From Candidatus Latescibacterota bacterium (GTDB taxonomy: Bacteria > Latescibacterota > UBA2968 > GCA-2709665): a stretch of DNA of 64,000 bases. Each line of letters opens with the position of its first letter. The stretch's first letter is position 1. The notes beneath the pieces were generated by a model, which saw only the letters and a list, made by a program, of their open reading frames with translations, was not told the DNA's origin and did no database searches. The stretch is from positions 576,001 to 640,000 of the forward strand of contig CAXXXF010000015.1 in NCBI GenBank assembly GCA_963667175.2. Reading direction: 5' to 3'. This document shows, one piece after another, positions 1,651 through 57,296 of the stretch. The position numbers and the translations under genes were made by a program.

Positions 1651-1683
1651 CCTGCCTGCGCCGAGTTCTGCTCGGCAGGCAGG
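1651..1683 (+). mobile_element. CCTGCCTG/CAGGCAGG mini-hairpin, 33 nt
   Basis: CCTGCCTG-CG-CCGAG-TTCTG-CTCGG-CAGGCAGG inside a CCTCTCCCCCCGG...GGGGGAGAGG repeat. Confidence 0.75.
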
Positions 1684-1942
1684 CTCCCTCTCCCGGGGGA
1701 GAGGGGGAGCAGAGCGAGGTGTCGTATCTTCGCCGAAATCGAAATTCAGCTCACACGGAGACACAAAGACACAAAGAAAACCAAAGGGCAAGACCCGAGA
1801 CACCGTTGAGGCGGGCAACCACCAGGGTTGCCACGACAAACGAAAATGCAGCGATCAGGAGTCGGTCTTCGGCCGTCAGCTTGAACCATAACAAACCCTT
1901 TGACGTCAGCGCCGGGAGGTAGGCGCAGACCTCTCCCCCCGG

Positions 1943-1975
1943 CCTGCCTGCGCCGAGTTCTGCTCGGCAGGCAGG
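1943..1975 (+). mobile_element. CCTGCCTG/CAGGCAGG mini-hairpin, 33 nt (identical to 1651-1683)
   Basis: Sits at the centre of the palindrome CCTCTCCCCCCGG...CCGGGGGGAGAGG (1930-1988). Confidence 0.75.
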
Positions 1976-2186
1976 CCGGGGGGAGAGGGGGTGAAAAGCG
2001 GAGACCGCGAAGGGATCACAGTTCCCCCTTCCCCCCGGGAAGGGGGAAAGGGGGTAGGTCGGTGGGACGGTGAGGGGTAAAGGCAGTTGTCAGTTAAATT
2101 CGGTTGGCGAAGGGTACACGTGATGTCATCGGTCGTTGTCTGCGTCGCGATGTGGATTAACCAGAAGGGACGCGTCGAGGGCAGGA

Positions 2187-2219
2187 CCTGCCTGCAGCGC
2201 AGTACGCTGCGCAGGCAGG
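2187..2219 (-). mobile_element. CCTGCCTG/CAGGCAGG mini-hairpin, 33 nt
   Basis: CCTGCCTG-CAGCG-CAGTA-CGCTG-CG-CAGGCAGG splits the REP-like GAGGGCAGGA|TGCCCTCGCTCCC with no duplication. Confidence 0.75.
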
Positions 2220-2315
2220 TGCCCTCGCTCCCAGGGAGACGTCTTCCTTCTTCCTTTTTCTTTCTTCGTTCTTCCTTCATCTTTTTCCTTCTTCCTTTTT
2301 TTGAAAGGAGTCGAC

Positions 2316-3278
2316 ATGACAGATCTAAAGGCCGCGGTTATCGGCTGCGGCGGGCACGCCCAGTCGCACCTGCAGATGATCGCGAACGAACCGAGGCTTC
2401 GGCTGGCGGGCATCGCGGAACTCGATGAGGAGCGGTTGCGCGGGAATCGGGCCGAATGGGCGCCTGAGCAGGCCTTTTCGGACTACCGCCAGATGCTCGA
2501 CGCGTGCAGTCCGGACGTGGTGTACGTGGTCACGAATCCCGGACACCTTCTGCCCATTGTTCTGGAATGCCTGAACAGGGGCATCCACACTTCGGTGGAG
2601 AAGTCTCCCGGAATGAACGTGGACGAGACCTCCCAGATGGCGCGGGCCGCCCGGCAGAGTACGGGCAAGGCCATCGTATCGTTCAACCGTCGATACTATC
2701 CTCACGTGCTGGCCGTCCGGCGGCGCATCCAGGCGGGCGGGGGCGCGGTACACGTCGCGGCCACGTACAACAAGCCGTTATCCCGGTTTAAGGACGCAAC
2801 GCCCGATCCGGTGATCTGCGACGCCATCCACCACGTGGACCTGATTCGCTGGTTGGCGGGTTCCGGCCCGGAAGAAGCAGCGATACCGGTGGAAGTGCGG
2901 GGAATGGTGCAGGACGGCGCGCGCCCCGTGTGCCATCGCCACAACGCCGTGGTGCGCTTCGACACGGGCGCGTTCGGCGTCCTGATGTGCCACTACGGCG
3001 TGGGCTATCGCATCCAGAGGGCGGAAGTACACGCGGAGGACCTGTCGGCCTATCTCGATCTGACTCGGGCGCCGCAGGTGGAGGGATATGAGCGGGGCGA
3101 GCCTTTTTTGGTGGAAGACGAGGAAATCGAGGCCGTGGGCGGCCCCGGCTTCAACGAGACCGCCCACTTCACCGATTGCATTCTGGAAGACCGCACGCCA
3201 TGGTCAACCCTGGACGACGCGGTGCAGACCATGCGCCTGTGCGAGGCCATCCGCGCAGGTCACGTGGGGACGTTGTGA
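2316..3278 (+). CDS. Gfo/Idh/MocA family oxidoreductase
   Basis: AAVIGCGGHA Rossmann motif, VEKSP, SFNRRY, DAIHHVD. AAGGAG RBS before ATG 2316. Confidence 0.9.
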   Translation: MTDLKAAVIGCGGHAQSHLQMIANEPRLRLAGIAELDEERLRGNRAEWAPEQAFSDYRQMLDACSPDVVYVVTNPGHLLPIVLECLNRGIHTSVEKSPGMNVDETSQMARAARQSTGKAIVSFNRRYYPHVLAVRRRIQAGGGAVHVAATYNKPLSRFKDATPDPVICDAIHHVDLIRWLAGSGPEEAAIPVEVRGMVQDGARPVCHRHNAVVRFDTGAFGVLMCHYGVGYRIQRAEVHAEDLSAYLDLTRAPQVEGYERGEPFLVEDEEIEAVGGPGFNETAHFTDCILEDRTPWSTLDDAVQTMRLCEAIRAGHVGTL

Positions 3279-3300
3279 TCGGAATTCCAGGACCTGAGGG

Positions 3301-5721
3301 CTACTCATAACGCAACGTGTCGACCGGATTTGCGAGCGCGGCCATCATCGACTGGGCGCCCACCGTGAGCAGCGCGATCCCGAGCGCCAGAATGCCGCAC
3401 AGAATGAAGACGACCGGCTCCGGATCGATCCGATAGGCGAAATTCTGAAGCCATTCGTTCATCACGTAGTAGGCAGCCGGCCACGCCAGCAGGTTGGCGA
3501 CGAGGACAAGCTTTATGAATTCACCGGAAAGCAGGAATGAAAGGGTAGCAACCGAACCTCCCAGCACCTTTCGGATACCGACTTCCCTGGTCCGCCGCGC
3601 AACGGCAAGAGACGTCAGCCCGAGAAGCCCCAGACAGGAGATCAGGATCGCGAACAGGAACGTATACCCGGTAATCCTGAACCACCGATCTTCATTCTGG
3701 TACTGGCGGGCGAGATTGTCTTCGAGGAAGGAATGAAGAAACGGGCTGTCGGGCGCAACCGCCTCCCACGTCTCCTTCAGAAACGCGATGCTACCTGCGA
3801 TGTCCTCAGGCTGGATACGGATCAGGACGAAGGGTCCCCACGACCGTGGCCCGGTGTGCAGCAACAACGGCTTGATTTCTCCGCGCAGGGAATCGAAATG
3901 GAAATCTTTTACAACGCCAATGACGGTCGGTTCGCCGAGTTGCTCCCACGCCTCCTGTTTCAGCGTTTTGCCGACCGGGTCCTTCCCCTCCCATCCGAGC
4001 ATTCCAGCCAGCTTCTCATTTACCAGCGCGTACAGTTTCAGGCCCGACGACGCTGGTGTGAGATTCCGACCAGCGATTAGCTGGATCTTCAGGGTCTCGA
4101 GATAGTCATGGTCAATTCGAACAATCCTTGCCTGGACACGCTCGCCGCTCTCCGATTCCAATCTGGTGGAATGGGTGCCGCTCGTAAACGCCCGGTCACT
4201 GATGGTTGCATTGAGTATCCGAGGAGATCCGGATATTTCCGCTTTGTACCGTTCGCTGACAGTGTCCGCATTCCTCACCATGGCGGGGACAACGACCACC
4301 TGTTCTGCACGGTACCCGAGATCTCTTTCTTTGACGAATCTGAGTTGTTGGAACATCATCGCGGCGCTGATCATCAGCGTGATGGTCAGGCCGTATTGCA
4401 CAACCACCAGCACCCTCGATCCCAGGTTTCGCCCCCCAATTCCTTTCTGCCCCTTGAGCACCTCCACCGGCTGGATCCGGAGCAGGACGGCGGCCGGATA
4501 ACTGCCCGCTACGAGTCCCGCGATGCCCACGATCCCCATGAGAGCCACCATCGTTCCCCAACTGTCCATATAGGGTATACTCAGATTCTTCCGCGCCAGA
4601 TCATTGAAGACAGGTAGAAACAACTCCGCCAGAGCGATTCCCATCGCCAGGGCAATCATGCTCAGAAACAATGCCTCGCCCAAAAACTGCTCTACAAGCT
4701 GCATCCTCTGGGCCCCGAGCACTTTTCGCATTCCCACTTCGCGGGCGCGTCCAACCAACCGGCCGGCGGTCAGCGTCATATAATTGATACATGCGATTGC
4801 CAGCACGAGAAGCGCAAGCCCGGACAGCACGTAGGAGTAGAACACGTTACCACGAGCTTCGTACGAATTCCTTCTGACCTCGGAATTTAGATAGACGTCG
4901 CGCAGCGGCTGGAGAGCCAGCAAAAACCCGTCGTCCGTTTTCCTCACGCGACCGTGCGTTTTGTAAACCTCGATTCTGTCTCCGAGGTGTTTCTCGGCGA
5001 ACGGCGGGAGCTCCGCTTCCAGGGCCTCTATATCCTGTCCTTCCACAAGTTGCACGTACATGGAGGCCTTCGCGTTCATCCAATCCGAATTCGTCCCATA
5101 GTTCTCGTGGTATCCAATGGGGACAAGTAAACTGAATTTCAGGCTGGAAGTCTCGGGAACGTCCCGCATCACACCCGTGACGCTAAACTCCTTGACTCCA
5201 ACCGACAGCGGCTTTCCCAGGGCTGCTGTGTATCCATCTTCCGGATTCCCGAAGAGCTTGAGGGCGACGGTCTCGCTCACCACCACGCCATCCGGCCGCC
5301 GCAGCGCGGTTGCGGCGTCTCCCGCGAGGAGTGGAAACGAGAATATCTCCAGAAACTGGGGGTCCACCAGACCGAAGGATTCGCGAAGGAAGATCTTCTG
5401 GTACGAGACCTGAGCCCTGGCACGCAGGAATCCGCTCGCGCGTTTGATCCCTGGAAATTCCTCCTCGAGCGCTGAGGCAAGAAAAGTCGGATGGAGGGTG
5501 GAATAGCCGATACTGCCATCGGGCCTGGTTTCGCGACCAATCACCCGAAAGATCCGGTCGGCATCCTCGTGGAAAGCATCGTGCCGCCATTCGTGCCGGA
5601 CGTACAGGAAGATCAGGATACAGCAGGCGAGGCCGATCGCCAGACCGAAGACGTTGATAAACGCGTAGAGCTTCTGGCGAAGCACGTTTCGCATGGCCAC
5701 GACGAAGTAGTTGCGGAACAT
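3301..5721 (-). CDS. ABC transporter permease, duplicated MacB_PCD+FtsX type (paralog 1)
   Basis: MFRNY..A.RN, GLAIG, RAREVGMRKVLGA, RRTREVGIRKVLG, C-terminal ANPVDTLRYE. Confidence 0.93.
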   Translation of the reverse strand: MFRNYFVVAMRNVLRQKLYAFINVFGLAIGLACCILIFLYVRHEWRHDAFHEDADRIFRVIGRETRPDGSIGYSTLHPTFLASALEEEFPGIKRASGFLRARAQVSYQKIFLRESFGLVDPQFLEIFSFPLLAGDAATALRRPDGVVVSETVALKLFGNPEDGYTAALGKPLSVGVKEFSVTGVMRDVPETSSLKFSLLVPIGYHENYGTNSDWMNAKASMYVQLVEGQDIEALEAELPPFAEKHLGDRIEVYKTHGRVRKTDDGFLLALQPLRDVYLNSEVRRNSYEARGNVFYSYVLSGLALLVLAIACINYMTLTAGRLVGRAREVGMRKVLGAQRMQLVEQFLGEALFLSMIALAMGIALAELFLPVFNDLARKNLSIPYMDSWGTMVALMGIVGIAGLVAGSYPAAVLLRIQPVEVLKGQKGIGGRNLGSRVLVVVQYGLTITLMISAAMMFQQLRFVKERDLGYRAEQVVVVPAMVRNADTVSERYKAEISGSPRILNATISDRAFTSGTHSTRLESESGERVQARIVRIDHDYLETLKIQLIAGRNLTPASSGLKLYALVNEKLAGMLGWEGKDPVGKTLKQEAWEQLGEPTVIGVVKDFHFDSLRGEIKPLLLHTGPRSWGPFVLIRIQPEDIAGSIAFLKETWEAVAPDSPFLHSFLEDNLARQYQNEDRWFRITGYTFLFAILISCLGLLGLTSLAVARRTREVGIRKVLGGSVATLSFLLSGEFIKLVLVANLLAWPAAYYVMNEWLQNFAYRIDPEPVVFILCGILALGIALLTVGAQSMMAALANPVDTLRYE

Positions 5722-5769
5722 TCTGAATCCTTAAAAGTGCGTAACCAGCACAATCTTCCCGTCGCACAT

Positions 5770-5985
5770 AGCGAGGCTTCGCGTCGTTCAGCCGAAACGA
5801 GATAGGTGGAAGTAAAGGCGCGAGCCCGCTTGAAGGTCGAATCACTCCCCCCTTGAGGGGGAGTCGCCTGCCTGCGTCCGCAGGACAGGCAGGCAGAAGC
5901 AGAGCCGGTGCTCTGAGCCTGTGGTCCCAATGCTTGTCGAAGGGTCAATGGATATTGACGCACCGGCGAAGGTGGTGGGGGGATT
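5770..5985 (+). repeat. ~220-bp dispersed repeat with CACTCCCCCCTTGAGGGGGAGT hairpin; inverted homolog at 11755-12030
   Basis: Alignable by eye with the reverse complement of 11755-12030. Carries a 27-nt CCTGCCTG hairpin at 5867-5893. Confidence 0.75.
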
Positions 5986-6058
5986 GCAACGCCTTGCCGT
6001 GAGCAAAAAGCACGGATAAACATGCGCGCGGTTTGCGTAGCAGTCTTACCGAAGGGAC

Positions 6059-6748
6059 CTAATTCGGCGCCTGTTCCTTGATGTTTTCCGACACCACGTG
6101 GCCGTCGAACAGGTGAACGACGCGGTGGGCAAACCCGGCATCGTGGGCCTTATGGGTGACCATGACGATGGTCGTCCCGTTCTTGTTCAGCTCCGTCAAC
6201 AGCCCCATCACTTCATTGCCGTTGGCGGAATCCAGGTTCCCCGTGGGCTCGTCGGCCAGAATGATCTTCGGATTCGAGATGACGGCCCGCGCCACGGCCA
6301 CGCGCTGCTGCTGGCCGCCCGACAACTGCTGCGGAAAGTGCTTCTCACGGTGCTTGATGCCCATATATTCCATCGACTCGTCCACGCGTTTTCTGCGTTC
6401 CTTCGACGGCATCTTCAGGTACAGCAGCGGCAGTTCGATGTTTTCGGCCACGGTCAGTTCGTCGATCAGATTGAAACTCTGGAACACGAAGCCGATGTTT
6501 TCCTTCCGGGCATCGGCTCTCTGCCGCTCCGTGTGTTTGGAGACCTCCACGTCATTCAGGTAGTATTCCCCATCGGTGGGATTGTCAAGCAGCCCCAGCA
6601 CGTTCAGGAGCGTGGACTTCCCGCAGCCCGACGGTCCCATCACGGCGACGAACTCGCCTTCGCTGATCTCGAGATTGACATTGCGCAGCGCGGTGGTTTC
6701 GACTTCTTCGGTCCTGTACACCTTCTGTAAATCCACAGTCTTGATCAT
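6059..6748 (-). CDS. ABC transporter ATP-binding protein (MacB/LolD type)
   Basis: GPSGCGKST Walker A, LSGGQQQR signature, ILADEPTGNLD, VTH. Confidence 0.96.
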   Translation of the reverse strand: MIKTVDLQKVYRTEEVETTALRNVNLEISEGEFVAVMGPSGCGKSTLLNVLGLLDNPTDGEYYLNDVEVSKHTERQRADARKENIGFVFQSFNLIDELTVAENIELPLLYLKMPSKERRKRVDESMEYMGIKHREKHFPQQLSGGQQQRVAVARAVISNPKIILADEPTGNLDSANGNEVMGLLTELNKNGTTIVMVTHKAHDAGFAHRVVHLFDGHVVSENIKEQAPN

Positions 6749-6767
6749 TTCGAGACTCCTTTCTGAA

Positions 6768-6973
6768 GTCAGCTTTCAGCAATCAGCAGTCAGCAGTTAG
6801 CCAAAAGCGGGTTCACGTCATTCCACAGAGTGGCCGCGAGTGTAGTCTTGATTTCGATGATTTCTCCCCTGATCCAATTGTCATCCGCTCGCTCTGGATG
6901 TCGCCGAGGCCAAGCGCCAAATGACATCGGTATACCATACGGGTTTAAGCTGACCGCTGATGGCTGACAGCTT
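6768..6973. repeat. Inverted arrays of 7-mer repeats flanking a ~145-bp spacer
   Basis: TCAGCTT-TCAGCAA-TCAGCAG-TCAGCAG at 6769-6801 and GCTGACC-GCTGATG-GCTGACA at 6949-6972. Confidence 0.7.
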
Positions 6974-8399
6974 ATTGCTGCAGTACCAGCTTATCGATTT
7001 CCTCATAGTTCTCATACGACGACGTTACGACGCGATCACCGGGCGAGAGGCCCTCGAGCACCTCGAAGTACTCGGGATTCTGGCGGCCGATGCGCACGGG
7101 GCGCCGCACGGCCAGGTCGCCCTCGACCACGAAGACCCAGTTCCCGCCCGTGGTCTGATAGAAGCCGCCGCGGGGCAACAACAACGCGACTTCCGGCGCG
7201 TCCAGTTCCAGCCGGATCTGTTCCGTCTGCCCGCGGCGGATGCTTCGCGGCGCCTCGCCGACAAAGTCCATATCCACCTCGAACTGCCCCTCCTTCACCT
7301 CCGGGAAGACCCGGCGGATCTTCAGCTCGAAGATCTCGTCGTCGATCTCAATCGTCCCCTTGAGTCCGGTCGTGATTCTCGTAATGTAGAACTCATCGAT
7401 GGCCGCGCGCATCTTGTACGCGTCCAGAACGTCGATCTGGCCGATGCTGGTCCCTTTCGCGATCAACTTGCCGATCTCTGCGTTGAGTTGCGACAACTGC
7501 CCGTCGATCGGCGCGCGGACCGTCAGGTTTCTCAATGGACGTCGCACGTCGTCCAGTTGAAGCTGAAGACTCCTGGCGCGCTTCTGGAGGGCGGCCAACT
7601 CGTTGACGCGATAGATCGAGTCGCGTCGCACGGTTTCCAGCATAAACACTTTGAGCTTCTGCGCGTGTTCGTATTTGTCCTTTGCCGACTCGAATTCGTC
7701 GCGGGAGGCGAGGTCATTTTCGAATAGCGCTTCCTGCCTGCGAAAGTCGCGCTCGGACTTCTGAAGGTCCAGTTCGATGTCCATCAGGGAACGCTTGCGC
7801 TGGATGTCCTGGATTTCCTGGCTCAACCGCGTGTTTTCCATCCTGTTGATCTGCTCGAACAACTGCGCTTCCTGGCTCAACACGGTCTGTTCCAGGGTCG
7901 GATTCGACATCCGCAGGATCGGCGTCCCCCGTTCGACCATGGCCCCGACTTCGAGGAAGATCTCTTCCACCTGACCGCCTTCCAGGGCATCCAGGTAGTG
8001 TGTCTGGATGGGCATGACCGTGCCGCGCTGCGGGATGAACTCCTGGAAGTAGCCGACGGTGACTTCGGAAATCGTGATCCGCTCAGCCTGCACGTTCAGC
8101 CTGGCGCTGTGATCGCCGAAGACGGCCATATAGACCACCAGACCTACGAAGCCCGCAATCGCTGCCGCGCTGATGATGCGCTTCGGCGTCCACAGCTTCT
8201 TCTTGATCTTGCGGTCCATGCCCTCGGTTGGCGTCTCCCGTACAGACGCGGAAGTACCGGGATTCACGAAACGGGGAATCGGTTTATCTCCGCCAACGGA
8301 GTCTGCCGGTTCTGAGGGTGTTTCCTGACTGGAAGTCGCGTCCGTCCGATTCAGCTTCAACCGACGTCCCTTTTCCTTCTTCGGTTTTTGCTCTTCCAT
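6972..8399 (-). CDS. Efflux periplasmic adaptor (membrane fusion protein, HlyD/MacA type)
   Basis: N-terminal TM helix, lipoyl-like GGQVEEI..G..V..G, long coiled coil, VRAPIDG, EVLEGLSPGDRVV. Alternative start at 8219. Confidence 0.92.
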   Translation of the reverse strand: MEEQKPKKEKGRRLKLNRTDATSSQETPSEPADSVGGDKPIPRFVNPGTSASVRETPTEGMDRKIKKKLWTPKRIISAAAIAGFVGLVVYMAVFGDHSARLNVQAERITISEVTVGYFQEFIPQRGTVMPIQTHYLDALEGGQVEEIFLEVGAMVERGTPILRMSNPTLEQTVLSQEAQLFEQINRMENTRLSQEIQDIQRKRSLMDIELDLQKSERDFRRQEALFENDLASRDEFESAKDKYEHAQKLKVFMLETVRRDSIYRVNELAALQKRARSLQLQLDDVRRPLRNLTVRAPIDGQLSQLNAEIGKLIAKGTSIGQIDVLDAYKMRAAIDEFYITRITTGLKGTIEIDDEIFELKIRRVFPEVKEGQFEVDMDFVGEAPRSIRRGQTEQIRLELDAPEVALLLPRGGFYQTTGGNWVFVVEGDLAVRRPVRIGRQNPEYFEVLEGLSPGDRVVTSSYENYEEIDKLVLQQ

Positions 8400-8461
8400 C
8401 GTCTCGCCTTAACGTACTAATGAAACGCCAGCCTCCAGCCTTCCCGGATTTCCGGCCGTCC

Positions 8462-9082
8462 CTATGAACTCCTCGTCATCCCCCGCCGTTCCACTTCCCG
8501 CCTCAATTCGTGACGCCCCCGGTACAGCCAGACTTTCAGGGTCCCCATCGGTACCTGCAGCTGCTCGACGATCTCATCATAAGACCGTTCCATAAGATAA
8601 TGCAGTGAGACCGCTTCGCGCTGACGTTCCGGCAGCGCCCGGATGCCTTCGATCACGATCCGCCGGCGCTCCTTTCGCGCCAGAACGGCGTCGGGACCTT
8701 CGTCGGGCGACGCGCGCCACCGCGCCTGGAGCGCAGGCTCGGCATCATTGACTTCGCTCAACCAGACCCTCCGCTTCTTCAAGGACCTCAGGTAGTTTGT
8801 ACACACATTCATGGCAATGCGCGTGAGCCACGTGGTGAAAGCGGCCTGCCCGCGAAATCCCGGAAGCCCCAGGAAGGCCTTGATGAAGACCAGTTGAACC
8901 AGGTCCTCGGCCTCATCCACGTTGCCCGCGCACCGGTGAACGAGCGCACGCACCCGGTCACGATGCCGCCTGAAGAGAACCTGATAGGCCCACTCATCGC
9001 CGGCAACGGCCCGGTCGATCAGCGCCGCATCGGACTCCGGCGAGCACTGTAGCGGCAGGAATTCGCTTTTCTTTTTTATCAC
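8462..9082 (-). CDS. ECF RNA polymerase sigma factor
   Basis: Region 2 AEDLVQLVFIKA..F.G.AAFTTWLTRIAMN; region 4 LPERQREAV..SYDEI...GTLKVWLYRGR. Confidence 0.92.
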   Translation of the reverse strand: MIKKKSEFLPLQCSPESDAALIDRAVAGDEWAYQVLFRRHRDRVRALVHRCAGNVDEAEDLVQLVFIKAFLGLPGFRGQAAFTTWLTRIAMNVCTNYLRSLKKRRVWLSEVNDAEPALQARWRASPDEGPDAVLARKERRRIVIEGIRALPERQREAVSLHYLMERSYDEIVEQLQVPMGTLKVWLYRGRHELRREVERRGMTRSS

Positions 9083-9144
9083 AAGCAGCCGGTCTCCGTC
9101 TTATGTCGTACGTATACAAGACACCCGCGTCTCGATTATACAGA

Positions 9145-9262
9145 AGCGACAACCGTGCCAACGAACTTTTCTATATAATTTTCAACTGTTTATACGAATA
9201 TGCTCACGAAAGCGGAATAAATAAGTGTTCGATTTCGATACACTGATGTCCGAAAATGGACA
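9145..9262 (-). promoter_or_regulatory. Sigma54 promoter module (-24/-12 site plus tandem palindromic activator boxes) upstream of the ECF sigma gene
   Basis: TGGCAC-GGTTG-TCGCT on minus strand (9145-9160); AT-rich IHF-like spacer; TGTTCGATTTCGATACA (9226-9242) and TGTCCGAAAATGGACA (9247-9262). Confidence 0.8.
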
Positions 9263-9289
9263 GTTCTGGCAGCGCCTGGACGGCACAGC

Positions 9290-11632: not shown

Positions 11633-11754
11633 GGAACCGCTACCTCTAAATTGGTTATCTCATGAGTTCTCGCTGTAAGCGTTCTACGATAGGACGTCCA
11701 CGCAAAATACAGTTATATTTGGTCGCGATGCTGGCATAAGGTACAGCGTTGACG

Positions 11755-12030
11755 TCCCCCCACCGCATCAGCCGTCGCCTGCCTGTGCGCTGCACGCAGA
11801 CAGGCCGGCCCTTCGACACCCCTTCGACAAGCTCAGGGTACTGGCTCAGGAATCGGCTCGGCTTCTGCCTGCCTGCCGCCTGCCTGCGCCGCTGCGCTTC
11901 CCGCGGCAGGCAGGCGCTCCGCTTGGATCAGGCAGGCGACTCCCCCTCAAGGGGGGAGTGATTAAACCGTTGCAAGGGCGTGCGCGTTCACTTGCGCCTA
12001 TTTGGTTGCGGCTGAGCATCGCGAAGCCGT
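11755..12030 (-). repeat. Dispersed repeat (homolog of 5770-5985) loaded with nested mini-hairpin insertions
   Basis: 27-nt CCTG hairpin at 11778-11804; nested CCTTCGACA..GCTCAGG units at ~11809-11850; nested 33+36-nt CCTG elements at 11868-11936. Confidence 0.78.
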
Positions 12031-12075
12031 GGCAGGTCGTACATGTGTAAGATACCTGCGTCTTCATCCTACAGA

Positions 12076-14658: not shown

Positions 14659-14721
14659 CCTGCCTGCAGCGCCTGTCTGCGTGCGTGCACGCACAAGCAG
14701 GCAGTTCGCTGCGCAGGCAGG
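14659..14721. mobile_element. Nested CCTG mini-hairpins: 30-nt element inside a 33-nt element
   Basis: Outer CCTGCCTGCAGCG|CAGTTCGCTGCGCAGGCAGG matches 2187-2219 with one mismatch. Inner CCTGTCTGCGTGCGTGCACGCACAAGCAGG at 14672-14701. Host is GGTAGGG|CAGACATTCCTGTCTGCCC. Confidence 0.78.
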
Positions 14722-17485: not shown

Positions 17486-17773
17486 TTCTGTTGGGCGACT
17501 CACCGTCTCGGGGACGGATATCGGACAATTGGCCGAACGCGGGCGGGCGGTTCGAGAACCGCCCCTACGTGTATCGGAAAACCGTCAAATTGGTTTCGTC
17601 CTGTAGCCCGCTGTCATTGTATCCGTAGGGGCCTGCCTGCTGAAAGGAGCAAGGCAGGTAACTCACCGGCCCTATCTCCAGGACGGGTGGCGAATATTCC
17701 TGGAACAAATCGACTCGGAAAACGATCAAATCCTTGAAACCGATATTCTTACACCAAAAAGGGGGTGGTCATC

Positions 17774-20499: not shown

Positions 20500-21222
20500 A
20501 CTTTGCACAGAATGACAACTTGGGCGATGAACATCCGCGAATCCCATCCGTTTCCCCTCGCCCAGCATGTCATCCTGAGGAGGCCGTCCTGCCTGGCTGC
20601 GTTTCATCGGCAGGCAGGCCGACGAAGGATCTACTGCGGCATCGCTTGATGCCCGAGCGTGTTCTGTCATTCGCGGGGAGCAGGATGGCGGCACGTCCGT
20701 CGCGGAAGGCCGGGCGCCTGCCTGCCGCGGGAAGCGAAGCGGCGCAGGCAGGCGGCAGGCAGGCGGACATTCCTGTCTGCCCACGTCAATGTCGTTCCTG
20801 TCGGGATCGACACAGATCGAGGATTCCGCCAGGCAACAAAGCCTCCGCGCAGATGGGCCGGTGAACGGGTCCGCTGCTCGTCAAGCCGAGGTGACGGGAG
20901 ATTCTTCGCTGCGCTCAGAATGACATCCTGGGCGATGAACATCCGCGAAACACATCCGTTACACCCTCGCCCAACATGTCATCCTGAGGAGGCCGGTATG
21001 CCTGCCAGAGAATCATCGGCAGGCAGGCTGACGAAGGATCTACTGCAGCATAGGTACACACCAGTGTGATTTGTACGTGTCAATACCTGTCAGGCGGCAC
21101 GTCCGTCGCGGAAGGCCGGGCGACCACGAGGGACGCCCCTACAAAGGCCATGGTGGAGGCGATGAGAAATCCGCTCTGAGGGTGGGGCCTGCCTGCGCCA
21201 AGCGGAGCGCCTGTCTGCCCTT
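20500..21222. repeat. Composite intergenic repeat, ~410-bp units
   Basis: GTCATCCTGAGGAGG..GACGAAGGATCT at 20569 and 20978, AGATTCTTCGCTGCGCTCAGAATGAC, and CCTG hairpins at 20588-20618 and 20717-20763. Confidence 0.8.
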
Positions 21223-23669: not shown

Positions 23670-24037
23670 AGCCTCCGGGCATATGGGCCGGTGAAGGCGT
23701 CCGCTGCACGTCAAACCGAGGAGACGGGAGATTCTTCGCTTCGCTCAGAATGACATGTTTTGCACTCGACATCCGCGAAATGTTTCGTTCAGTCCTGTGC
23801 CAAACCTGTCATCCTGAGGAAGCCGCCCTGCCTGCCAGAGAATCATCGGCAGGCAGGCTGACGAAGGATCTACTGCGGCATCGCTTGAACCCCGACCGTC
23901 TTTTGTCATTCGCCGTGGCCTGGCAGGCGGCACGTTTGCGCCCACACTGTCAGGCTGAGGCGGCGCGTGTGTTGATGCGCCCGCCCAAACTGCCATGTTG
24001 ACGAATCCAATGCGAGGGCGGACATTCCTGTCTGCCG
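23670..24037. repeat. Composite intergenic repeat unit, same family as 20500-21222 and 26440-27950
   Basis: GCATATGGGCCGGTGAAGG, AGATTCTTCGCTTCGCTCAGAATGAC, GTCATCCTGAGG..GAAGGATCT, GGACATTCCTGTCTGCC. Confidence 0.8.
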
Positions 24038-26439: not shown

Positions 26440-27950
26440 AGCGTTTCTTTGACGCGGCTTCGCTCAGAACGAATGGGCGCCCGCCCAAACTGTCATGCTA
26501 AGAAATCCGTTGTGAGGGTGGGGCCTGCCTCGACGTCGCTCACAAAAACAGGCCGGCCGATCTCCAAACGTGTCATCCTGAGGAGGCCGCCCTGTCTGCC
26601 AGAGATTCATCGGCAGGCAGGCCGACGAAGGATCTACTGCAGCATCGCTCGATACCCGACCGTCTTTTTTCATTCGCCGCGGGCTGACAGGCGGCACGTT
26701 TGCGCCTACATGGCCAGGCGGCGCAAGCGCGTGTGATGATGCAACCGCCCAGACTGTCATGTTTAGAATCCGTAGTGAAGGCGGGGCGGACATTCCTGTC
26801 TGCCCACGGCAATGGCATTCTGTCGGCATGGACGCAGATTGACGAGGCCGCCAGGCCAACAATGCCTCCGCGCATATGGGCCGGTGAAGGCTTGCGCTGC
26901 ATGTCAACCCGAATAGACGGGAGATTCTTCGCTCCGCTCAGAATGACATGTCTTGCAATAACGCTTGCCGAGACGTCTCCGTCACACCCTCGCCCATCAT
27001 GTCATCCTGAGGAAGCCGTCCTGCCTGCTGGCGGTTCACCGGCAGGCTGGCTGACGAAGGATCTACTGCGGCATCGCTTGATACCCGAGCGTCTTCTGTC
27101 ATTCGCCGTGACGTGGAAGGCGGCACGTCTGCGCCTACACGGCCAGGCGGAGCAAACGCGTGTGATAATGCACCCGCCCAGACTGTCATGTTTAGAATTC
27201 CGATGTGAGGGTGGGGCAGACATTCCTGTCTGCCCAAGTCAATGTCATTCTGTCGGCATGGACGTAGACTGAGGAAACCGCCAATGAAACGAAGCGTCCG
27301 CGCATATGGGCCGGTGAAGGCTTGCGCTGCATGTCAACCCGAATAGACGGGAGATTCTTCGCTGCGCTCAGAATGACATGTCTTGCAATGGATATGAGCG
27401 AAATGTTTCGGTCATACGTTTGCCAGGTCCATCACCCGCTCGGCCTGTGCCCCTCCCTGAGCCTGCGGTTCCTGAGCCGTTCCCTGAGCCTGTCGAAGGG
27501 CCGGCGAAGGGATTGCGAACGGTTTATGGGCTGCCTGAATGCGGGCATTTCGAAAAGCTCAATGACCACTTTTTGATAGGCCACTTCGACAAGCTCAGCG
27601 CTGGCAGAACGGGCAATGACCACGTTTCGACAGGGGCTTTCGGCTCCGCTCAGAATGACTGTTTGACTGACCTCCGACTGCGAGACGTTTCCGTCATACG
27701 TTCGCCCAAGCATGTCATCCTGAGGAAGCCGCCTTGCCTGCCAGCGGTTCATCGGCAGGCTGGCTGACGAAGGATCTACTGCGGCATCGCTTGATACCCG
27801 AGCGTCTTCTGTCATTCGCCGTGACGTGGAAGGCGGCACGTCTGCGCCTGCACGGCCAGGCGGAGCAAACGCGTGTGATAATGCACCCGCCCAAACTATC
27901 ATGCTTAGAAATCCGGTGCGAGGGTGGGGCGGACATTCCTGTCTGCCCGC
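26440..27950. repeat. Tandem array of ~430-bp composite repeat units
   Basis: GTCATCCTGAGG at 26573, 27001 and 27714; CGCATATGGG at 26871 and 27301; GGGGCRGACATTCCTGTCTGCCC near 26783, 27213 and 27926. Confidence 0.85.
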
Positions 27951-29725: not shown

Positions 29726-31042
29726 ATGAGCAAGGTATCATCGAAGTCTCGTGAAGTCAAGTTGAACACGGAAGGTGTTGTGAGTTCCAGGGCGGTCTCC
29801 GCAGGTATGCTGGAGGATGTTGACGTCCGTGTGGCCTTGATCCAGTCGCTGATCCCTCTGGGTCTGGCCGCCGTGGAAGAAATCTTGCAGAATGAGGTCG
29901 CCGCGTTGACGGGCAAGAGATACAGTCGTAAAGCAGACAAGGCCCCGAATCGCCGGTGGGGCGTGCAACGTGGATCGGTGTATCTATCGGACCAGAAAGT
30001 GCCCGTGGCGGTACCGAGGGTGCGCGACGTGGAAGCCAATGAGGAGGTGCCTCTACAGGCGTATCGCCGCTTGCAGCGCCCCAGAGACATGGACGAAGGG
30101 TTGCTGCTTCGCGTTCTGGGCGGCCTTGCCACGCGTTCTTACGCCAGTTGCGCAGAGGCGGTACCCGAGGCGTTTGGCTTGTCTTCGTCGACGGTCTCGA
30201 AGCGGTTCATAAAGACATCAGCGGCCAAGCTGAGGCAGTTTCAAGAACGGTCGCTTGCCGGCTATGACCTGGTGGGGCTGTTTATGGATGGCAAGACCTT
30301 TGCCGATCAGCAAATGATCATCGCCCTTGGCGTGACAATCGACGGGGACAAGGTCCCGCTGGGGTTCGTGCAGGCCGCCAGTGAAAATGAGCGCGTGTGC
30401 CGGCAGTTTGTCAATTCGCTCATCGATCGCGGACTGCAGTATCACCAGGGGCTGCTGTGCCTCATCGACGGCTCGAAGGGGTTGCGGACCGCGCTGACCA
30501 AGGCCCTATCCGGATACGTCGCCATTCAACGCTGCCAGCCTGCCTGCCGAGCATCCGGCGCAGGCAGGTGGCACAAACGGGAAAACGTGATCGCCTATCT
30601 GCCCAAATCACAGCAGGATGAGGTCAGAAAGGCCCTCCACGATGCGTACGACAAGGAGACCTACAACGAAGCCAAAGCCGCGCTACAGGCCCTCAAACCC
30701 TCCCTGGCGCTGAGGAACGCATCGGCACTGAACAGCCTCGAGGAAGGGCTCGAAGAAACCCTCACCCTCCATCGGCTGGGGCTCATGCCACAGCTCAAAC
30801 AATCGTTCCGCACCACCAACTGTATCGAATCCCTCAACGCCATGGTCGCTCAGCGCACACGAAATGTAAAACGATGGAACAACTCCGATCAGCGATATCG
30901 GTGGTTGGCAGCCGCGCTGTTAGACATCGAGCCACGACTGCGGAGAATCAAAGGATACCGCTTTCTTCCTATACTCAGACTTGCCCTACAAAAACACCTC
31001 AACCTCGATCACGACGCGCAAGAGGCTTTCGCCGCCGACTAA
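29726..31042 (+). CDS. IS256-family (Mutator-like DDE) transposase with a 10-aa in-frame insertion
   Basis: VPRVR, LFMDG, LIDGSKGL, QRCQ[PACRASGAGR]WHKRENV, RTTNCIESLN. Confidence 0.92.
   Translation: MSKVSSKSREVKLNTEGVVSSRAVSAGMLEDVDVRVALIQSLIPLGLAAVEEILQNEVAALTGKRYSRKADKAPNRRWGVQRGSVYLSDQKVPVAVPRVRDVEANEEVPLQAYRRLQRPRDMDEGLLLRVLGGLATRSYASCAEAVPEAFGLSSSTVSKRFIKTSAAKLRQFQERSLAGYDLVGLFMDGKTFADQQMIIALGVTIDGDKVPLGFVQAASENERVCRQFVNSLIDRGLQYHQGLLCLIDGSKGLRTALTKALSGYVAIQRCQPACRASGAGRWHKRENVIAYLPKSQQDEVRKALHDAYDKETYNEAKAALQALKPSLALRNASALNSLEEGLEETLTLHRLGLMPQLKQSFRTTNCIESLNAMVAQRTRNVKRWNNSDQRYRWLAAALLDIEPRLRRIKGYRFLPILRLALQKHLNLDHDAQEAFAAD
30539..30568 (-). mobile_element. CCTGCCTG/CAGGCAGG mini-hairpin, 30 nt, in frame inside the transposase
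   Basis: CAG|CCTGCCTG-CCG-AGCATC-CGG-CG-CAGGCAGG|TGG. Confidence 0.85.
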
Positions 31043-31894: not shown

Positions 31895-31963
31895 CCTGCC
31901 TGCGCGAAGCGGAGCGCCTGCCTGCCGCGGCAAGCGAAGCGGCGCAGGCAGGCGGCAGGCAGG
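31895..31963. mobile_element. Nested 33+36-nt CCTG mini-hairpin composite
   Basis: Near-identical composite to the reverse complement of 11868-11936, but in a different host (GGTGGGG|CAGACATTCC). Deletion derivatives at 20717-20763, 21188-21219 and 34569-34626. Confidence 0.8.
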
Positions 31964-34452: not shown

Positions 34453-34798
34453 CGACTGACTCCTTATGGAAAGTACCATTCACTTCAATCTGCCAAGGCT
34501 GCGCTCAGTATGAATGGGCGCCCGACCGCCAAAACAGTCATGTTGGGAAATCCGATTTGAGGGTGGGGCCTGCCTGCGCCAAGCGGAGCGCCTGCCTGCC
34601 GCGGGAAGCGAAGCGGCGCAGGCAGGCGGACATTCCTGTCTGCCCACGTCCGTGTCGTTCTGTCAATTGAAGCAGATGGACGAGGCCGCCAGGCTGCTCC
34701 CCTCCCCGCGCCGGGGAGGGGCTGGGCTGGGGGAGGGGTCGCCGTGCCCGGGACGGGCGCATTGGGCCCACGACGATCATCGATTCGATGGTACACTG

Positions 34799-41229: not shown

Positions 41230-41410
41230 GGCAACATCGCTCGGGATGGGCTGGTCAGGTGACAGGGCGCCCAACCTCCATCTGCGCCACTGAGGTGGTT
41301 CACGGAAAAACCGGCCCCGCGGCGTTTGAGCGGCCTGCCTGCGCCTGCCTGGCCGGCAGGCAGGCGCCGTTCTTTTTGGTCCTTTTTCTTGGGCGTACAA
41401 GAAAAAGGAC
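41230..41410. repeat. Intergenic repeat ending in a GTCCTTTTTCTTG..CAAGAAAAAGGAC hairpin, with a 31-nt CCTG hairpin at 41334-41364
   Basis: Perfect inverted repeat at 41378-41410; CCTGCCTG-CG-CC..GG-CAGGCAGG. Confidence 0.6.
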
Positions 41411-54529: not shown

Positions 54530-54558
54530 ATTAACGGTTATCTTCCTTCAAATTGAGG

Positions 54559-56481
54559 TCAATGCCCGTTCCCTTCGACAAGCGCCAACTTCAACCTCTG
54601 TCTGTATCGATCGGGATCCTTGAGAATCCGCACGGCCTCCTGAAACTGTTCATCGCCGCTCAGCCGCGCCAGAATACGCCCTTTCTTGCCCCAGACCCGG
54701 TTTCCCAGTTCCCTCCCGATCTCCAGCCTGATAAACGGTTCGGCCTTTTCGAACTCCGCCTCCCGCTCCGTTTCAACGACGTTTCGCAGGACGTCCAGTG
54801 CCTGGTCCGCCTTCGCCTCGAGTCCTGCCGCCGTCAGTGCGCGACTCAGACTCTCCAGTTCGTTTCCTGACGGCGTACGGTATCGCTTGAAGTTTCCGAT
54901 CTTTGACGTATCCGCGAGGAACGCCCGGAACGCGGCGATTTCGGCATCTCCCACCTCAAATTCCTCCGGACGCTCGGGAAACGCGTTCCGCGCGGCGTAT
55001 TCAACCGCGAAATCGAAAAAGAGGCCGGATCGGTACATTTCGAGAATCAACCGCGGCCTGCGCTTTGGCTTCACAACCACGTCGGGGGTAATTCCGCCGC
55101 CGCCGTAAACCGTGCGTCCACCAGCGGTTTTAAAGGCCCTGGCCGAGTCCGGGGCATCGGAAGCGAGGCCTTCCTCTCTCAACGCCTTCCCCAGCATCTG
55201 CCCCAGTTCCATCTCGAAAAGCTGCTCCGCCTGCTTCGAGGATTCCAGGTCAAACTGCTCGAAAAGCCGTGTGATCGCGTCCTCCCGCGTCTCTTCCCCG
55301 GCAATCGTCGCGACCGTCTGGTACAGCGGCACCTGCACGTCCCCAACGTTCAAGGCAAGGTTGCCCAGCCTGCCGAATCGTCTGTTTTTGTGGATGCTGC
55401 GCCCGCTGGGGGTGTAGTAAAGCGCCGTTGTCCACTTCAGTGCCTTGTCGTCGCCAACTTGCTGGAAGGATTGCACCGATCCCTTTCCAAAGGTCGGCAC
55501 GCCCAGAATCAACCCGCGGTCCGAGTCCTGAATGGCGCCGGCGACGATCTCCGAAGCGCTGGCGCTGTGCGCGTTGACCAGTACCACAAGTGGGATATCC
55601 CTGACCCGGGAACTCTCCCTGGTACGATATTCCTTATTCTGGGATTCCACGCGACCCCGGGTGGTGACGACCAGCAGATCGGGTCCAAGAAACACGTCGG
55701 CGACGGCGACGGCCTGTGTCAGCAGTCCGCCCGGATTTCCCCGCAGATCCAGTATAATGCCCTCCACGTTCTTCGCTTTCAATTCGTCAACTGCGGCCGC
55801 CAATTCATCGGGCGTGGTTTCCGAGAACCGGCTGTTGATCAAGCCGGACATGGCGATATAACCGATGCCTTCTTCTATTCCTGCAATGCTCGCCACGCTC
55901 TTTACGCGAATGCGCGCCCGGATTATCTCCTGGTCGAACGGCGCCGGCCGACCCGTCCGGTCGATTGTAATCACAACCCGATTGCCCGGCGTCCCCCGCA
56001 GCACGTCCACGACTTCCTCCAGCTTCCTGTTGAGCGTGGGGTCGCCATCCACCGCGACGATCCGATCGCCGACCACGAGTCCGGACGTGTCCGCGGGCGT
56101 ACCCTCGATCACACTCAGAACGACGGGCGCCTCGACACCTTTCCTCTTCATGGTGCTGATCGTGATGCCCAGGCCGCCGAATTTCCCCTGGGTATCGATC
56201 ATAAGGTCTTCGAAGGTGCGCCGATTGAGGAATTGGGTATACGGGTCCAGTTCATCCAGCATGCCTTCGATGGCCGAGGTCGTGAGCGAGTCGGATGCCA
56301 GGGGTTTAAAGTAGCTCGTGGTCAGCAATTTCAGCGTTTCGGCGTATTCGTCTATACTCCGACCGACCGTGGCGTACGCGTCTTCCCCGTTGACGAGACG
56401 CGAGTCCAGGAACACGCAGGTTGCCAGAATGACGACAAGCGACGCCCCAACCCATATTCGTCTGCGATTCCGTCCGATCAT
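54559..56481 (-). CDS. S41 family C-terminal processing protease (PDZ)
   Basis: LDPYT, GKFGGLGI, LDLRGNPGGLL, SASASEIVAGAIQD, TFGKGSVQ, YYTPSGRSI, GGGGITPD. Confidence 0.93.
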   Translation of the reverse strand: MIGRNRRRIWVGASLVVILATCVFLDSRLVNGEDAYATVGRSIDEYAETLKLLTTSYFKPLASDSLTTSAIEGMLDELDPYTQFLNRRTFEDLMIDTQGKFGGLGITISTMKRKGVEAPVVLSVIEGTPADTSGLVVGDRIVAVDGDPTLNRKLEEVVDVLRGTPGNRVVITIDRTGRPAPFDQEIIRARIRVKSVASIAGIEEGIGYIAMSGLINSRFSETTPDELAAAVDELKAKNVEGIILDLRGNPGGLLTQAVAVADVFLGPDLLVVTTRGRVESQNKEYRTRESSRVRDIPLVVLVNAHSASASEIVAGAIQDSDRGLILGVPTFGKGSVQSFQQVGDDKALKWTTALYYTPSGRSIHKNRRFGRLGNLALNVGDVQVPLYQTVATIAGEETREDAITRLFEQFDLESSKQAEQLFEMELGQMLGKALREEGLASDAPDSARAFKTAGGRTVYGGGGITPDVVVKPKRRPRLILEMYRSGLFFDFAVEYAARNAFPERPEEFEVGDAEIAAFRAFLADTSKIGNFKRYRTPSGNELESLSRALTAAGLEAKADQALDVLRNVVETEREAEFEKAEPFIRLEIGRELGNRVWGKKGRILARLSGDEQFQEAVRILKDPDRYRQRLKLALVEGNGH

Positions 56482-56576
56482 ATTCCGCCTCCGCTTTGTC
56501 CGGTCCCGATACTCTGCGGCGCCGTCGGAAGCGCTCCGCCCCGGTAAGCCGTCGTCCTCTGCCCCCGTGCGCCCGA

Positions 56577-57212
56577 TCATGCGCCTGGGCGATCCACGTC
56601 GTCCATCCGTTTGTGTGTCTCGTTGTAAATCAGGAATGACTGATCCTCGACGGACAGCCGGCCGTCAATCCGAAAAACGCGCTCGGGTTCCTCCTGCCAG
56701 GTCCTGAGATACCCGCCTCGTACCCGTTCAAAAAAAGCATCGCCGGCCGCTTCAAGCCTGTCGGCATCTGCCGACGTGGACCGCCGTCTGGCGGTTTCGA
56801 GATCCATATCGATCCAAACGGTCAGATCCGGCCTGAGCCCCCCTGTGGCCACCTCCTGCGCCGCCTGAATGCGGTCCAGATCCAACCCGCGCCCGTAGCC
56901 CTGATAGACGATCGTCGAATCAGCATAGCGGTCTGAAACAACCACTTTGCCCTGCAACAATGCGGGCCGGATCAGCATATTGACGTGCTGGGCCCGATCC
57001 GCCGAGAATAACAGCATCTCGGCGGAGGGGTCCACCTCCGCACGCCGCGCGAGCAAGAGACTGCGAACCCTTCGGCCCAGCCCGGTTCCCCCCGGCTCCA
57101 GGGTGAACACCACGTCGCGGCCCTCCCCGCGAAGCCTCTCGACCAGCCGCTCTGCCTGTGTGGTCTTCCCGCACCCGTCGATACCTTCAAACGTAATAAA
57201 CAGTCCGGCCAC
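56577..57212 (-). CDS. tmk: Thymidylate kinase
   Basis: FITFEGIDGCGKTTQ, EPGGT, DRAQH, SDRY; GTG start with GGAGG. Confidence 0.95.
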   Translation of the reverse strand: MAGLFITFEGIDGCGKTTQAERLVERLRGEGRDVVFTLEPGGTGLGRRVRSLLLARRAEVDPSAEMLLFSADRAQHVNMLIRPALLQGKVVVSDRYADSTIVYQGYGRGLDLDRIQAAQEVATGGLRPDLTVWIDMDLETARRRSTSADADRLEAAGDAFFERVRGGYLRTWQEEPERVFRIDGRLSVEDQSFLIYNETHKRMDDVDRPGA

Positions 57213-57239
57213 GCCGAACGAACCTCCCGTGCCACCTAT

Positions 57240-57296
57240 CAGCCCGTTGATAAAGTCCATCCGGGCTGCCTGCCTGTGCGTTCGCACGCAGACAGG
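57240..57296. mobile_element. MITE end fragment carrying a 28-nt CCTG hairpin (57269-57296)
   Basis: CAGCCCGTTGATAAAGTCCATCCGG matches the reverse complement of the 59428 end, followed by CCTGCCTG-TGCG-TT-CGCA-CG-CAGACAGG. Confidence 0.65.

Follow-up and report, generated by a model that had tools for sequence, protein, structure and literature searches.

Small imperfect hairpins gained and lost as single units: a REP-like family in Latescibacterota

Results

Hairpin copies in the window and the genome

The stretch of DNA analysed here (the window) comprises 64,000 nucleotides (nt) of contig C15 in a Candidatus Latescibacterota genome, G000 (G000:C15:576001-640000; 5.52 Mb in 18 contigs, about 59% G+C). 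Between 3301 and 34479 it holds a tandem array of eight MacB_PCD/FtsX-type permease paralogues of about 765-830 amino acids (aa), one of them truncated (27953-29554); the array is interrupted by a Mutator-family transposase gene, and the spacers between its copies are rich in repeats. Dispersed through the window are copies of a small imperfect hairpin with the strict pattern CCTGYCTG-N8-25-CAGRCAGG, hereafter the CCTGYCTG hairpin, which is gained and lost precisely, one hairpin at a time, and is very probably a mobile element.

The strict pattern matched 15 times in the window, where 0.00 matches were expected and 100 dinucleotide-preserving shuffles gave none. Scanning the genome with the same pattern, as suggested in an original prediction made from the window alone, returned 207 matches in 82 distinct sequences dispersed over all contigs; the reversed control pattern returned none. 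Strict matches span 24-41 nt, the typical element measures 27-40 nt, and Rfam has no match in the window. Once nested, mismatched and truncated copies are added by direct reading, the window holds about 22 copies. The original prediction had counted about 20: all its strict coordinates were recovered, together with one further copy at 26591, and its less regular items were borne out at 11868, 14659, 31895 and 34569 (outer copies) and at 14672 (an inner copy with one mismatch), the item at 17632 being a degenerate remnant only.

Architecture and covariation

The typical layout has a terminal stem of 8 bp (CCTGYCTG/CAGRCAGG); the 5′ arm is followed by a CG bulge of 2 nt, and the inner stem-loop varies. 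Placing the two unpaired bases after the 5′ octamer gave an orientation to 172 of the 207 copies (94 plus, 78 minus), with 35 not orientable. Several subfamilies recur: F1 (CCTGTCTG-CG-TGCG-AA or GACA-CGCA-CAGGCAGG; 28 or 30 nt), F2 (CG-CCGAG-N5-CTCGG core; 33 nt), F3 (CG-CAGCG or CAGTG-N5-CGCTG core; 33 nt), F4 (CG-CCGC-N10-GCGG core; 36 nt) and F5 (CG-CCAAG-N5-CGCGG core; 33 nt). Beside these stand a 40-nt form, whose inner part starts again with CCTGCCTG, and a 31-nt type with a 10-bp stem and no bulge.

Covariation was assessed in 34 distinct oriented 33-mers (105 copies from G000 and its relatives) by a column-wise count with a custom script. The terminal 8 pairs are maintained in 33-34 of the 34 sequences. 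Across the inner 5 pairs, 141 of 170 cells are paired; shuffling the partners leaves 108.6 ± 4.2 (at most 122 in 1000 shuffles) and sliding them leaves 40-79. Pair 12-24 runs through the compensatory types C-G (19), A-T (9), G-C (3), G-T (2) and T-G (1). For most copies, this count backs the predicted architecture of an 8-bp terminal stem, a CG bulge and an inner stem that varies in sequence while remaining paired.

Individual copies in the window

Two identical 33-nt F2 hairpins, both on the plus strand, lie at 1651..1683 (CCTGCCTG-CG-CCGAG-TTCTG-CTCGG-CAGGCAGG), within the loop of a larger C-rich palindrome, and at 1943..1975, in the host CCTCTCCCCCCGG^CCGGGGGGAGAGG (the caret marks the insertion point), a host type with a known empty paralogue. 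A 33-nt F3 hairpin (2187..2219, minus) occupies the loop of a hairpin of another family, REP-ii, at the unambiguous A^T junction GAGGGCAGGA^TGCCCTC. Two 27-nt copies follow: one with a CG-TCC-GCA-GGA core (5867..5893, plus; host GAGGGGGAGTCG^CAGAAGC), for which 20 empty paralogues exist, and an F1-like one (11778..11804, minus; host CATCAGCCGTCG^CCGGCCCTTCGAC) with 26 empty paralogues.

Nested pairs are a recurrent feature. An outer F5 hairpin (11868..11936, minus) is split at CCG^CGC by a 36-nt F4 hairpin (11879..11914, plus), and a second F5 (31895..31963, plus; host GAGGGTGGGG^CAGACATTCC) is split at GCG^CGG by another 36-nt F4 (31917..31952, minus). A third F5, its 3′ octamer deleted (34569..34629, plus), likewise contains a 36-nt F4 (34591..34626, minus), and a further 36-nt F4 (20717..20752, minus) lies within a decayed F5 host. 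The outer F3 hairpin at 14659..14721 (minus; host GGTAGGG^CAGACATTCC) is split by a 30-nt F1 (14672..14701, plus) with one mismatch in its 3′ octamer (CAAGCAGG). Partial copies comprise the 5′ part of an F5 fused directly to the host CCTGTCTGCCC through an internal deletion (21188..21220, plus) and the remnant at 17632..17658, which retains the 5′ octamer only, its 3′ arm having decayed.

The 31-nt type, with its 10-bp stem, 11-nt loop and lack of a CG bulge, occurs without assigned strand at 20588..20618 (host GTCATCCTGAGGAGGCCG..CGACGAAGGATC), at 23827..23857, at 26591..26621 as a paralogue of the 23827 copy, and at 27020..27050 with one mismatch in the 3′ octamer. A host repeat, GTCATCCTGAGGAGGCCG..CGACGAAGGATCTAC, is found at 20560-20650, 23800-23890, 26560-26650 and 27000-27060; its short form in genomes G007, G013 and G011 has CCAGG instead of the 31-nt hairpin. 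Three more copies were located elsewhere: a 30-nt hairpin (30539..30568, minus) in frame in the Mutator-family transposase gene, whose open reading frame (ORF; 29726-31042) stays open; a 31-nt composite copy (41334..41364, plus) in the host GAGCGG^CGCCGTTC; and a 28-nt F1 hairpin (57269..57296, minus), bordered on the right by the 3′ half of an F3.

Paralogous and orthologous empty sites

A paralogous site was called empty where the two flanks of a hairpin are directly adjacent elsewhere in the genome, ungapped, over at least 12 nt on each side and at 85% identity or more. By this definition, a paralogous site lacking exactly one hairpin exists for 135 of the 207 copies. In the window, the host GGTGGGG|CAGACATTCC is empty at 27211 (GAGGGTGGGG^CAGACATTCCTGTCTGCCC, 27205..27235) and filled at 31895 by F5 carrying F4, the pair of alleles from which mobility had originally been proposed; the same host is also filled at 14659, by F3 carrying F1. 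The 30539 copy adds 30 nt to the Mutator-family transposase; the insertion is missing from six paralogues, and the closest of these is 100% identical over 60 nt. A further small repeated hairpin, GGGCAGACATTCCTGTCTGCCC, occurs at 27211-27235, 14722-14740 and 31964-31982 and at about 20 sites genome-wide; its 5′ arm is a recurrent insertion target of CCTGYCTG hairpins.

Comparison with related genomes revealed the same precision. At 57269, four of five relatives (G012, G007, G013 and G011) read GGGTGG|CGCCG and are thus empty; the fifth, G009, carries F3 with a nested F1 exactly there, and G000 retains F1 and half of F3. A type I-like DNA methylase gene on contig C17 contains a 33-nt in-frame hairpin that is absent from all four orthologues found. 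With four empty relatives each, both insertions appear to be derived states, and the precise empty orthologous sites that the original prediction called for are thus present at 57269 (4/5) and in the C17 methylase (4/4). Other sites differ in content among genomes: 41334 has no hairpin in G007, a 33-nt F2 in G011 and the 31-nt copy in G000, and one host repeat, unoccupied in G000, bears a hairpin in four G009 copies. In a gene that we take, from its translation, to belong to the IS21-like family, the G000 and G009 flanks are 98.5-99.5% identical and the difference is a 27-nt hairpin in G009.

Nesting follows fixed insertion points. We observed F4 in F5, F1 in F3, and F2 or F3 in F1, as well as a 30/40-nt form within F2 or F5, and several host sites hold two to five hairpin types. 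Empty sites, nesting and in-frame insertions in genes together back the earlier proposal of a very small, non-autonomous hairpin that inserts precisely.

A global comparison of G000 with G009 was less informative. Of 38 G000 hairpins, 18 lacked anchors, 10 fell under 'other', 3 were missing between diverged flanks and 7 scored as 'filled'; inspection by eye showed 3 of these 7 to be alignment artefacts and 1 (C15:460988) a chance match in a conserved gene. Of 68 G009 hairpins, 43 lacked anchors, 8 fell under 'other', 6 were missing between diverged flanks, 4 proved too long and 5 scored as filled. The remaining 2 were precisely empty, but each matched the same G000 repeat copy, so that they may be paralogous. 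Initial flank mapping between genomes matched mostly paralogous repeats. Because the divergence and repeat content of intergenic DNA rule out a global count, we relied on hand-checked sites.

Orthologous hairpins can vary at 3-5 internal positions, with terminal octamers and 15+15 flanking bases identical. Such pairs include C15:575469 versus G009:C1:3564807 and the window copy at 23827 versus G009:C1:3588703; at 23827, the orthologous copies in G009, G012 and G007 differ internally and the flanks match. The hairpin interior turns over faster than its surroundings, and internal differences between identical flanks fit either replacement at hot targets or gene conversion.

Nineteen sequencing runs matched, as assembled contigs, the best word shares (0.44, 0.39, 0.32 and 0.25) belonging to sponge metagenomes and one coded organism. 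On window positions 1-20000, contigs from runs X1, X2, X19 and X3 (at least 99% identity) were short, of low depth and ended at repeats; many joints ran between repeat copies, and these contigs gave no usable evidence on filled or empty alleles in either direction.

Junctions and target preference

No target duplication accompanies insertion at unambiguous junctions. The 2187 copy, already singled out in this respect by the original prediction, reads GAGGGCAGGA|..|TGCCCTC without duplication, and the same holds for the C17 methylase junction GGATGGA^CAGGATGG, where CAGG is repeated on the right side only. Nor are there direct repeats at the element ends able to drive precise deletion.

The targets are strongly biased. 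In a set of 97 distinct oriented flank contexts, 81 have G at position -1, 61 have C at -2 and 87 have C at +1; the junction G^C occurs in 74, with CG^C the commonest form. A minority of insertions follow GGA^. By an unquantified reading of the hosts, many targets lie at or near the apex of small palindromes.

Amplification and genomic location

Clustering by flanks gave groups of 57, 15, 10 and smaller, with about 60 singletons on each side. An approximate single-linkage grouping of 10+10-nt host sites yielded 72 groups, about 45 of them unique, and about 92 combinations of host site and hairpin type. One host site is occupied by 26 copies of a single F1 variant, and the spacers of the tandem permease paralogues in the window repeat identical composites. 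These groupings indicate that roughly half of the 207 copies arose through amplification of larger mosaic repeats already bearing a hairpin. Segmental duplication, raised in the original prediction as a possible origin of all copies, thus accounts for many, which ride in larger repeats, and leaves about 45 unique host-site groups.

A crude gene call (4014 genes, 81.6% coding, mis-called at least for a SurA-like gene at 60900-62480) placed 157 of the 207 copies in intergenic DNA, 8 across a gene edge and 42 inside ORF calls. Most of the 42 result from start-codon over-extension, lying within 150 nt of over-extended 5′ ends. Accepted intragenic copies are those in the Mutator transposase (two copies), a DDE_Tnp_1_4 transposase, the IS21-like gene of G009 and the C17 methylase, a set that leaves out C14:261101 and two copies in C4:188390-190099. 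An apparent insertion in a 1171-aa ORF at C3:182318 was dropped, the site being an intergenic repeat block. Verified intragenic copies are few; they occupy transposase genes or a low-complexity linker in the methylase.

Many hairpin lengths are multiples of three, as had been pointed out for the window (142/207 genome-wide), and no coding signal goes with this. Because the share is similar in intergenic DNA (108/157) and inside crude ORF calls (34/42), it reflects the 8+2+5+5+5+8 architecture rather than selection on reading frame.

Distribution among genomes

The hairpin is confined to one order of Latescibacterota and is very patchy there. Counts in 15 genomes of the genus are 207, 222, 136, 91, 84, 64, 21, 19, 15, 6, 3, 3, 2, 1 and 0. 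Other genera of the family reach 226 (G015, one contig) and 131, and in the sister family one genome (G024) has 94 copies, the CG form contributing only 10 per strand. Outside this order, no genome in a 168-genome sample of the phylum exceeds 7 copies.

The F2 consensus was found in 30 stretches among 185,579 species genomes: 26 titled Latescibacterota, 2 in mislabelled sponge bins, 1 in a metagenome-assembled genome (MAG) and 1 in a Chlorobiota-labelled bin, on a short contig. In some sponge bins labelled Gemmatimonadota, the same genes are present, with proteins 84-85% identical. G015, of another genus, shares the same subfamilies, some as identical 33-mers. In the literature searched, we found no publication on such repeats in Latescibacteria; the repeat tables in the supplements of PMC3733652 and PMC2817692, which lay outside this search, could list similar motifs.

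Candidate enzymes

A search of G000 with PF01797 identified three genes, on contigs C3 and C7. None lies in the window, which, as originally predicted, contains no Y1/HUH gene as a candidate enzyme. The C3 gene (C3:192505-193107) encodes a 201-aa protein that scores 100.8 bits against NCBIfam REP_Tyr_transpos (cut-off 80) and 38 bits against Pfam Y1_Tnp (cut-off 23), matches the TnpA-REP structure PDB 4er8 (E = 9.8e-6) and shows HVH and Y-x-x-x-NP motifs in its translation. Judged by its sequence, it is a bona fide transposase of the kind associated with repetitive extragenic palindromic (REP) sequences, a REP-associated tyrosine transposase (RAYT).

In five genomes, inverted copies of REP-ii, CGAGGGCA-GGA/GGGA-TGCCCTCG, lie on both sides of the C3 RAYT. 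G000 contains about 30 plain copies of REP-ii and at least 6 with a CCTGYCTG hairpin in the loop, and in G009 the REP-ii directly after the RAYT stop codon holds such a hairpin. By manual reading, 8 of 10 positions agree between the REP-ii arm CCTGCCCTCG and the 5′ end of the hairpin with its bulge, CCTGCCTGCG. Orthologues of the C3 RAYT (at least 77% identity) are present in G000, G009, G007, G011, G013 and G016.

The other RAYT-like genes were rejected as cognate enzymes, each carrying its own GTAG-headed REP. The C7 pair (199 aa each, 54.3 bits against the NCBIfam RAYT cut-off of 80, one with the HUH motif changed to P-L-H) is associated with the classic GTAG-headed REP GTAGGGGCAGGTTTSAAACCTGCCCCTAC, which occurs at 25 sites genome-wide, including C7:59771, 60187, 63139 and 63555 (loci L002 and L003). 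Each C7 ORF contains one copy, translated as ..VGAGLKPAPT.., and has a second copy some 60 nt before its start. The C12 gene (C12:166122-166890; 256 aa, N-terminal YRRNLPH motif) has GTAGCGCAAACTG-type REPs; downstream of it lie two GTAGC(A/G)CAAACTGT-type REPs. A scan of 32 hairpin pairs for bracketed genes gave no candidate enzyme except the RAYT-like gene with the mutated HUH motif.

Also set aside was a DUF1156 methylase of about 1220 aa with an internal Y1 domain, a defence-island protein not found in G000. It is encoded at L081:5352-9014 (G007), G009:C1:4547685, G011:C2:164031 and 169777, and G016:C1:3072108; it has a weak D12 methyltransferase match and a Y1_Tnp domain at residues 309-384 that is 44-47% identical to the C3 RAYT. 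Its island includes an SNF2/NOV_C helicase and an AAA_15 ATPase and lies about 10 kb from a free-standing RAYT.

Discussion

Relation to known systems

The setting is an uncultured, sponge-associated phylum, in which these hairpins occur without a GTAG head or a flanking transposase. Their closest likeness is to REPs and the mosaic organisation in which REPs sit, the bacterial interspersed mosaic elements (PMC2817692), together with their RAYTs. As described in published accounts (Nunvar 2010, PMC2817692; Di Nocera 2013, PMC3733652), both kinds are imperfect palindromes of 20-40 nt in hundreds of copies, mostly extragenic; both form mosaic repeats, sometimes lie in palindromes or genes, vary in copy number between relatives and occur in genomes with RAYT genes. 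The CCTGYCTG hairpins are accordingly short, high-copy, mainly extragenic palindromes. However, they start with CCTG and end with CAGG and lack the GT(A/G)G or CGTC head of REPs, though other repeats in the genome carry GTAG. They form no REPtron, a RAYT between two inverted copies, the genome's RAYTs each having another cognate REP, and unlike REPs they nest inside one another.

REPINs (Bertels and Rainey 2011, PMC3116915) were likewise proposed, in that account, to be non-autonomous passengers of a single-copy RAYT, forming within-genome families with population dynamics. Their replicative unit is described as an inverted REP doublet, singlets being seen as dead remnants (PMC3116915), whereas the unit inserted or missing here is exactly one hairpin, both in the paralogue test (135/207) and between orthologues.

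In the cyanobacterium Nostoc and its relatives, the small dispersed repeats SDR4-6, described by Elhai et al. in 2008 in Genome Research, are reportedly elements of 21-27 nt, some hairpin-forming, nested and at unique positions among paralogues, and are said to have no known enzyme. They are unrelated in sequence and phylum, and the hairpins here are somewhat longer. With IS200/IS605 elements and palindrome-associated transposable elements (PATEs), the family has in common the absence of target duplication, an adjacent short motif and imperfect hairpins, the insertions lying 3′ of that motif. It differs in having one hairpin whose stem ends are the element ends, where IS200/IS605 elements have two distinct subterminal hairpins and distant cleavage sites; their strong lagging-strand bias was also not detected here by a GC-skew proxy.

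Miniature inverted-repeat transposable elements (MITEs) combine terminal inverted repeats with a target duplication and derive from DDE elements; at 27-40 nt and with no duplication, the hairpins fall outside that class. Integron attC sites resemble them in that the terminal pairs are conserved, the interior varies and extrahelical bases set the polarity of the folded strand. The hairpins nevertheless lack RYYYAAC/GTTRRRY cores and are far shorter, dispersed and nested; no search was made for an integrase. The family is thus an orphan REP-like variant that stands outside REPs as defined, REPINs, MITEs and attC sites.

Proposed mechanism

We consider it probable, with appreciable doubt, that these are lineage-specific, REP-like, non-autonomous single-hairpin mini-elements moved as single-stranded DNA by a Y1/HUH enzyme of the RAYT kind acting in trans. 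The unit gained and lost is a single imperfect hairpin of 27-40 nt; its folded single strand would be excised and integrated by a transposase encoded elsewhere in the genome. Integration proceeds without target duplication. CG^C is the commonest target, frequently where a different small palindrome has its apex, and the hosts are other repeat families, fellow hairpins of the family and, now and then, gene linkers. Copy number rises further as hairpin-bearing host repeats multiply. The conserved unpaired CG may, speculatively, help to choose the target CG.

Y1/HUH enzymes such as IS200/IS605 TnpA and TnpA-REP recognise imperfect single-stranded DNA hairpins and insert without duplication beside a short motif. 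By analogy with them, we infer mobilisation by an enzyme of this class, which we hold to be somewhat better than an even chance. The best candidate is the RAYT at C3:192505-193107; that this type of RAYT acts on the hairpins is a tentative suggestion from co-occurrence and from the hairpins inserted in its REP-ii loops, which we rate below even. C3-type RAYTs occur in 6 of 9 genomes with at least 64 hairpins (one of another genus) and in none of 32 with 21 or fewer, a count that is a lead and not a test, because it uses related genomes and cut-offs chosen after seeing the data.

Beyond this weakness of the co-occurrence count, several observations weigh against the proposed mechanism. The hairpin-rich genomes G015 (226 copies), G006 (136) and G024 (94) have no C3-type RAYT. 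The original prediction had advised looking for Y1/RAYT genes flanked by or co-occurring with the hairpin; no RAYT is flanked by inverted copies of the CCTGYCTG family, every RAYT-like gene examined having its own different hairpin family (REP-ii at C3, GTAGGGGCAGGTTTSAAACCTGCCCCTAC at C7, GTAGCGCAAACTG-type at C12). Two hairpins do surround the gene at C7:62893-63492, in direct orientation and inside copies of one larger repeat. Hairpin orientation shows no relation to the sign of GC skew (31/63 versus 23/55, p = 0.74), a crude proxy blurred by passive carriage. Subfamily F5 has two mismatched inner pairs, and in only 8 of 82 distinct sequences does the inner segment, folded by itself, outperform mononucleotide shuffles (mean -3.13 versus -2.54 kcal/mol), a weak test. 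A single hairpin cut at its very base also mismatches the end geometry of IS608-type elements.

A bolder version of this mechanism, which we regard as unlikely, takes the roughly 30-nt hairpin as a complete transposition substrate. The CG bulge would guide it by pairing with the target CG, on the model of the IS608 guide tetranucleotides that pair with cleavage sites, and a RAYT with another cognate REP, or another enzyme, would paste it into hairpin loops. If true, no smaller self-targeting DNA transposon would be known, and there would be direct evidence for the movement of REP singlets by RAYT-type enzymes.

Alternative explanations

The hairpins might instead be mobile through an enzyme outside the Y1/HUH class: a nuclease or recombinase that works on cruciforms or hairpins, or reverse transcription of a hairpin RNA with subsequent integration. 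The absence of any RAYT flanked by the family, the 226 copies of the same subfamilies in G015 without a C3-type RAYT, the missing strand bias and the empty yield of the 32 bracketed pairs, apart from the mutated RAYT-like gene, all speak for such a route, and the genome contains an ORF that is presumably of the group II intron reverse transcriptase kind. Yet precise, duplication-free insertion beside a fixed motif and dependence on an imperfect hairpin are established hallmarks of HUH enzymes, and the RAYT co-occurrence (6/9 versus 0/32) would have to be coincidence. No alternative enzyme was identified, Y2, TnpB, integrase and other nuclease families lying outside the search. We therefore rate this route as rather improbable.

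A second alternative holds that the hairpin is only a passenger of larger repeats and gene conversion, the 'empty' sites being precise deletions of an unstable palindrome. The long shared flanks and clusters of 57, 15, 10 and fewer, the single F1 variant found 26 times in one host site and the identical composite spacers among the tandem permease genes agree with it, as do orthologous hairpins that differ inside identical 15+15 flanks, as conversion would give. It is countered by the roughly 45 unique host-site groups, by up to five unrelated hairpin types at one host site and by the lack of terminal direct repeats to drive precise deletion. The insertions in the single-copy C17 methylase and at 57269, seemingly derived with four relatives empty each, speak against it as well, and we find it quite unlikely.

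A third alternative, in which selection for a function (for example as protein-binding sites, terminators or RNA stabilisers) maintains the hairpins in place of spread by transposition, is very unlikely. In its favour, at least 157 of 207 copies are intergenic by the crude gene call, identical 33-mers occur across genera and the inner stems covary, but copy number ranges from 0 to 222 within one genus, so that the hairpins cannot be essential, Rfam gives no match in the window, and copies occur in both orientations, nested in one another and in some cases inside transposase or methylase genes. A host function could have been added to them later.

Implications

RAYT transposition of REPs was inferred, according to the account in PMC3116915, from association and in vitro cleavage, with the doublet as the favoured mobile unit. 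We found no report of RAYT-linked repeats in sponge symbionts among titles and abstract openings. The CCTGYCTG family provides unusually clean natural evidence: gain and loss of a single hairpin at base-pair resolution, a short target motif, nesting of members and repeated hits on one target. With hairpins of 28-36 nt, a CG^C target and a candidate RAYT, it also offers compact substrates for a biochemical test of singlet mobility.

Annotators should be aware that the insertions add 9-11 residues to proteins and break short-read assemblies. Short-read sponge assemblies break exactly at hairpin and repeat blocks, with contig ends at 5869 and 2282 of the window. Such elements are likely to be under-represented in short-read MAGs of this lineage.

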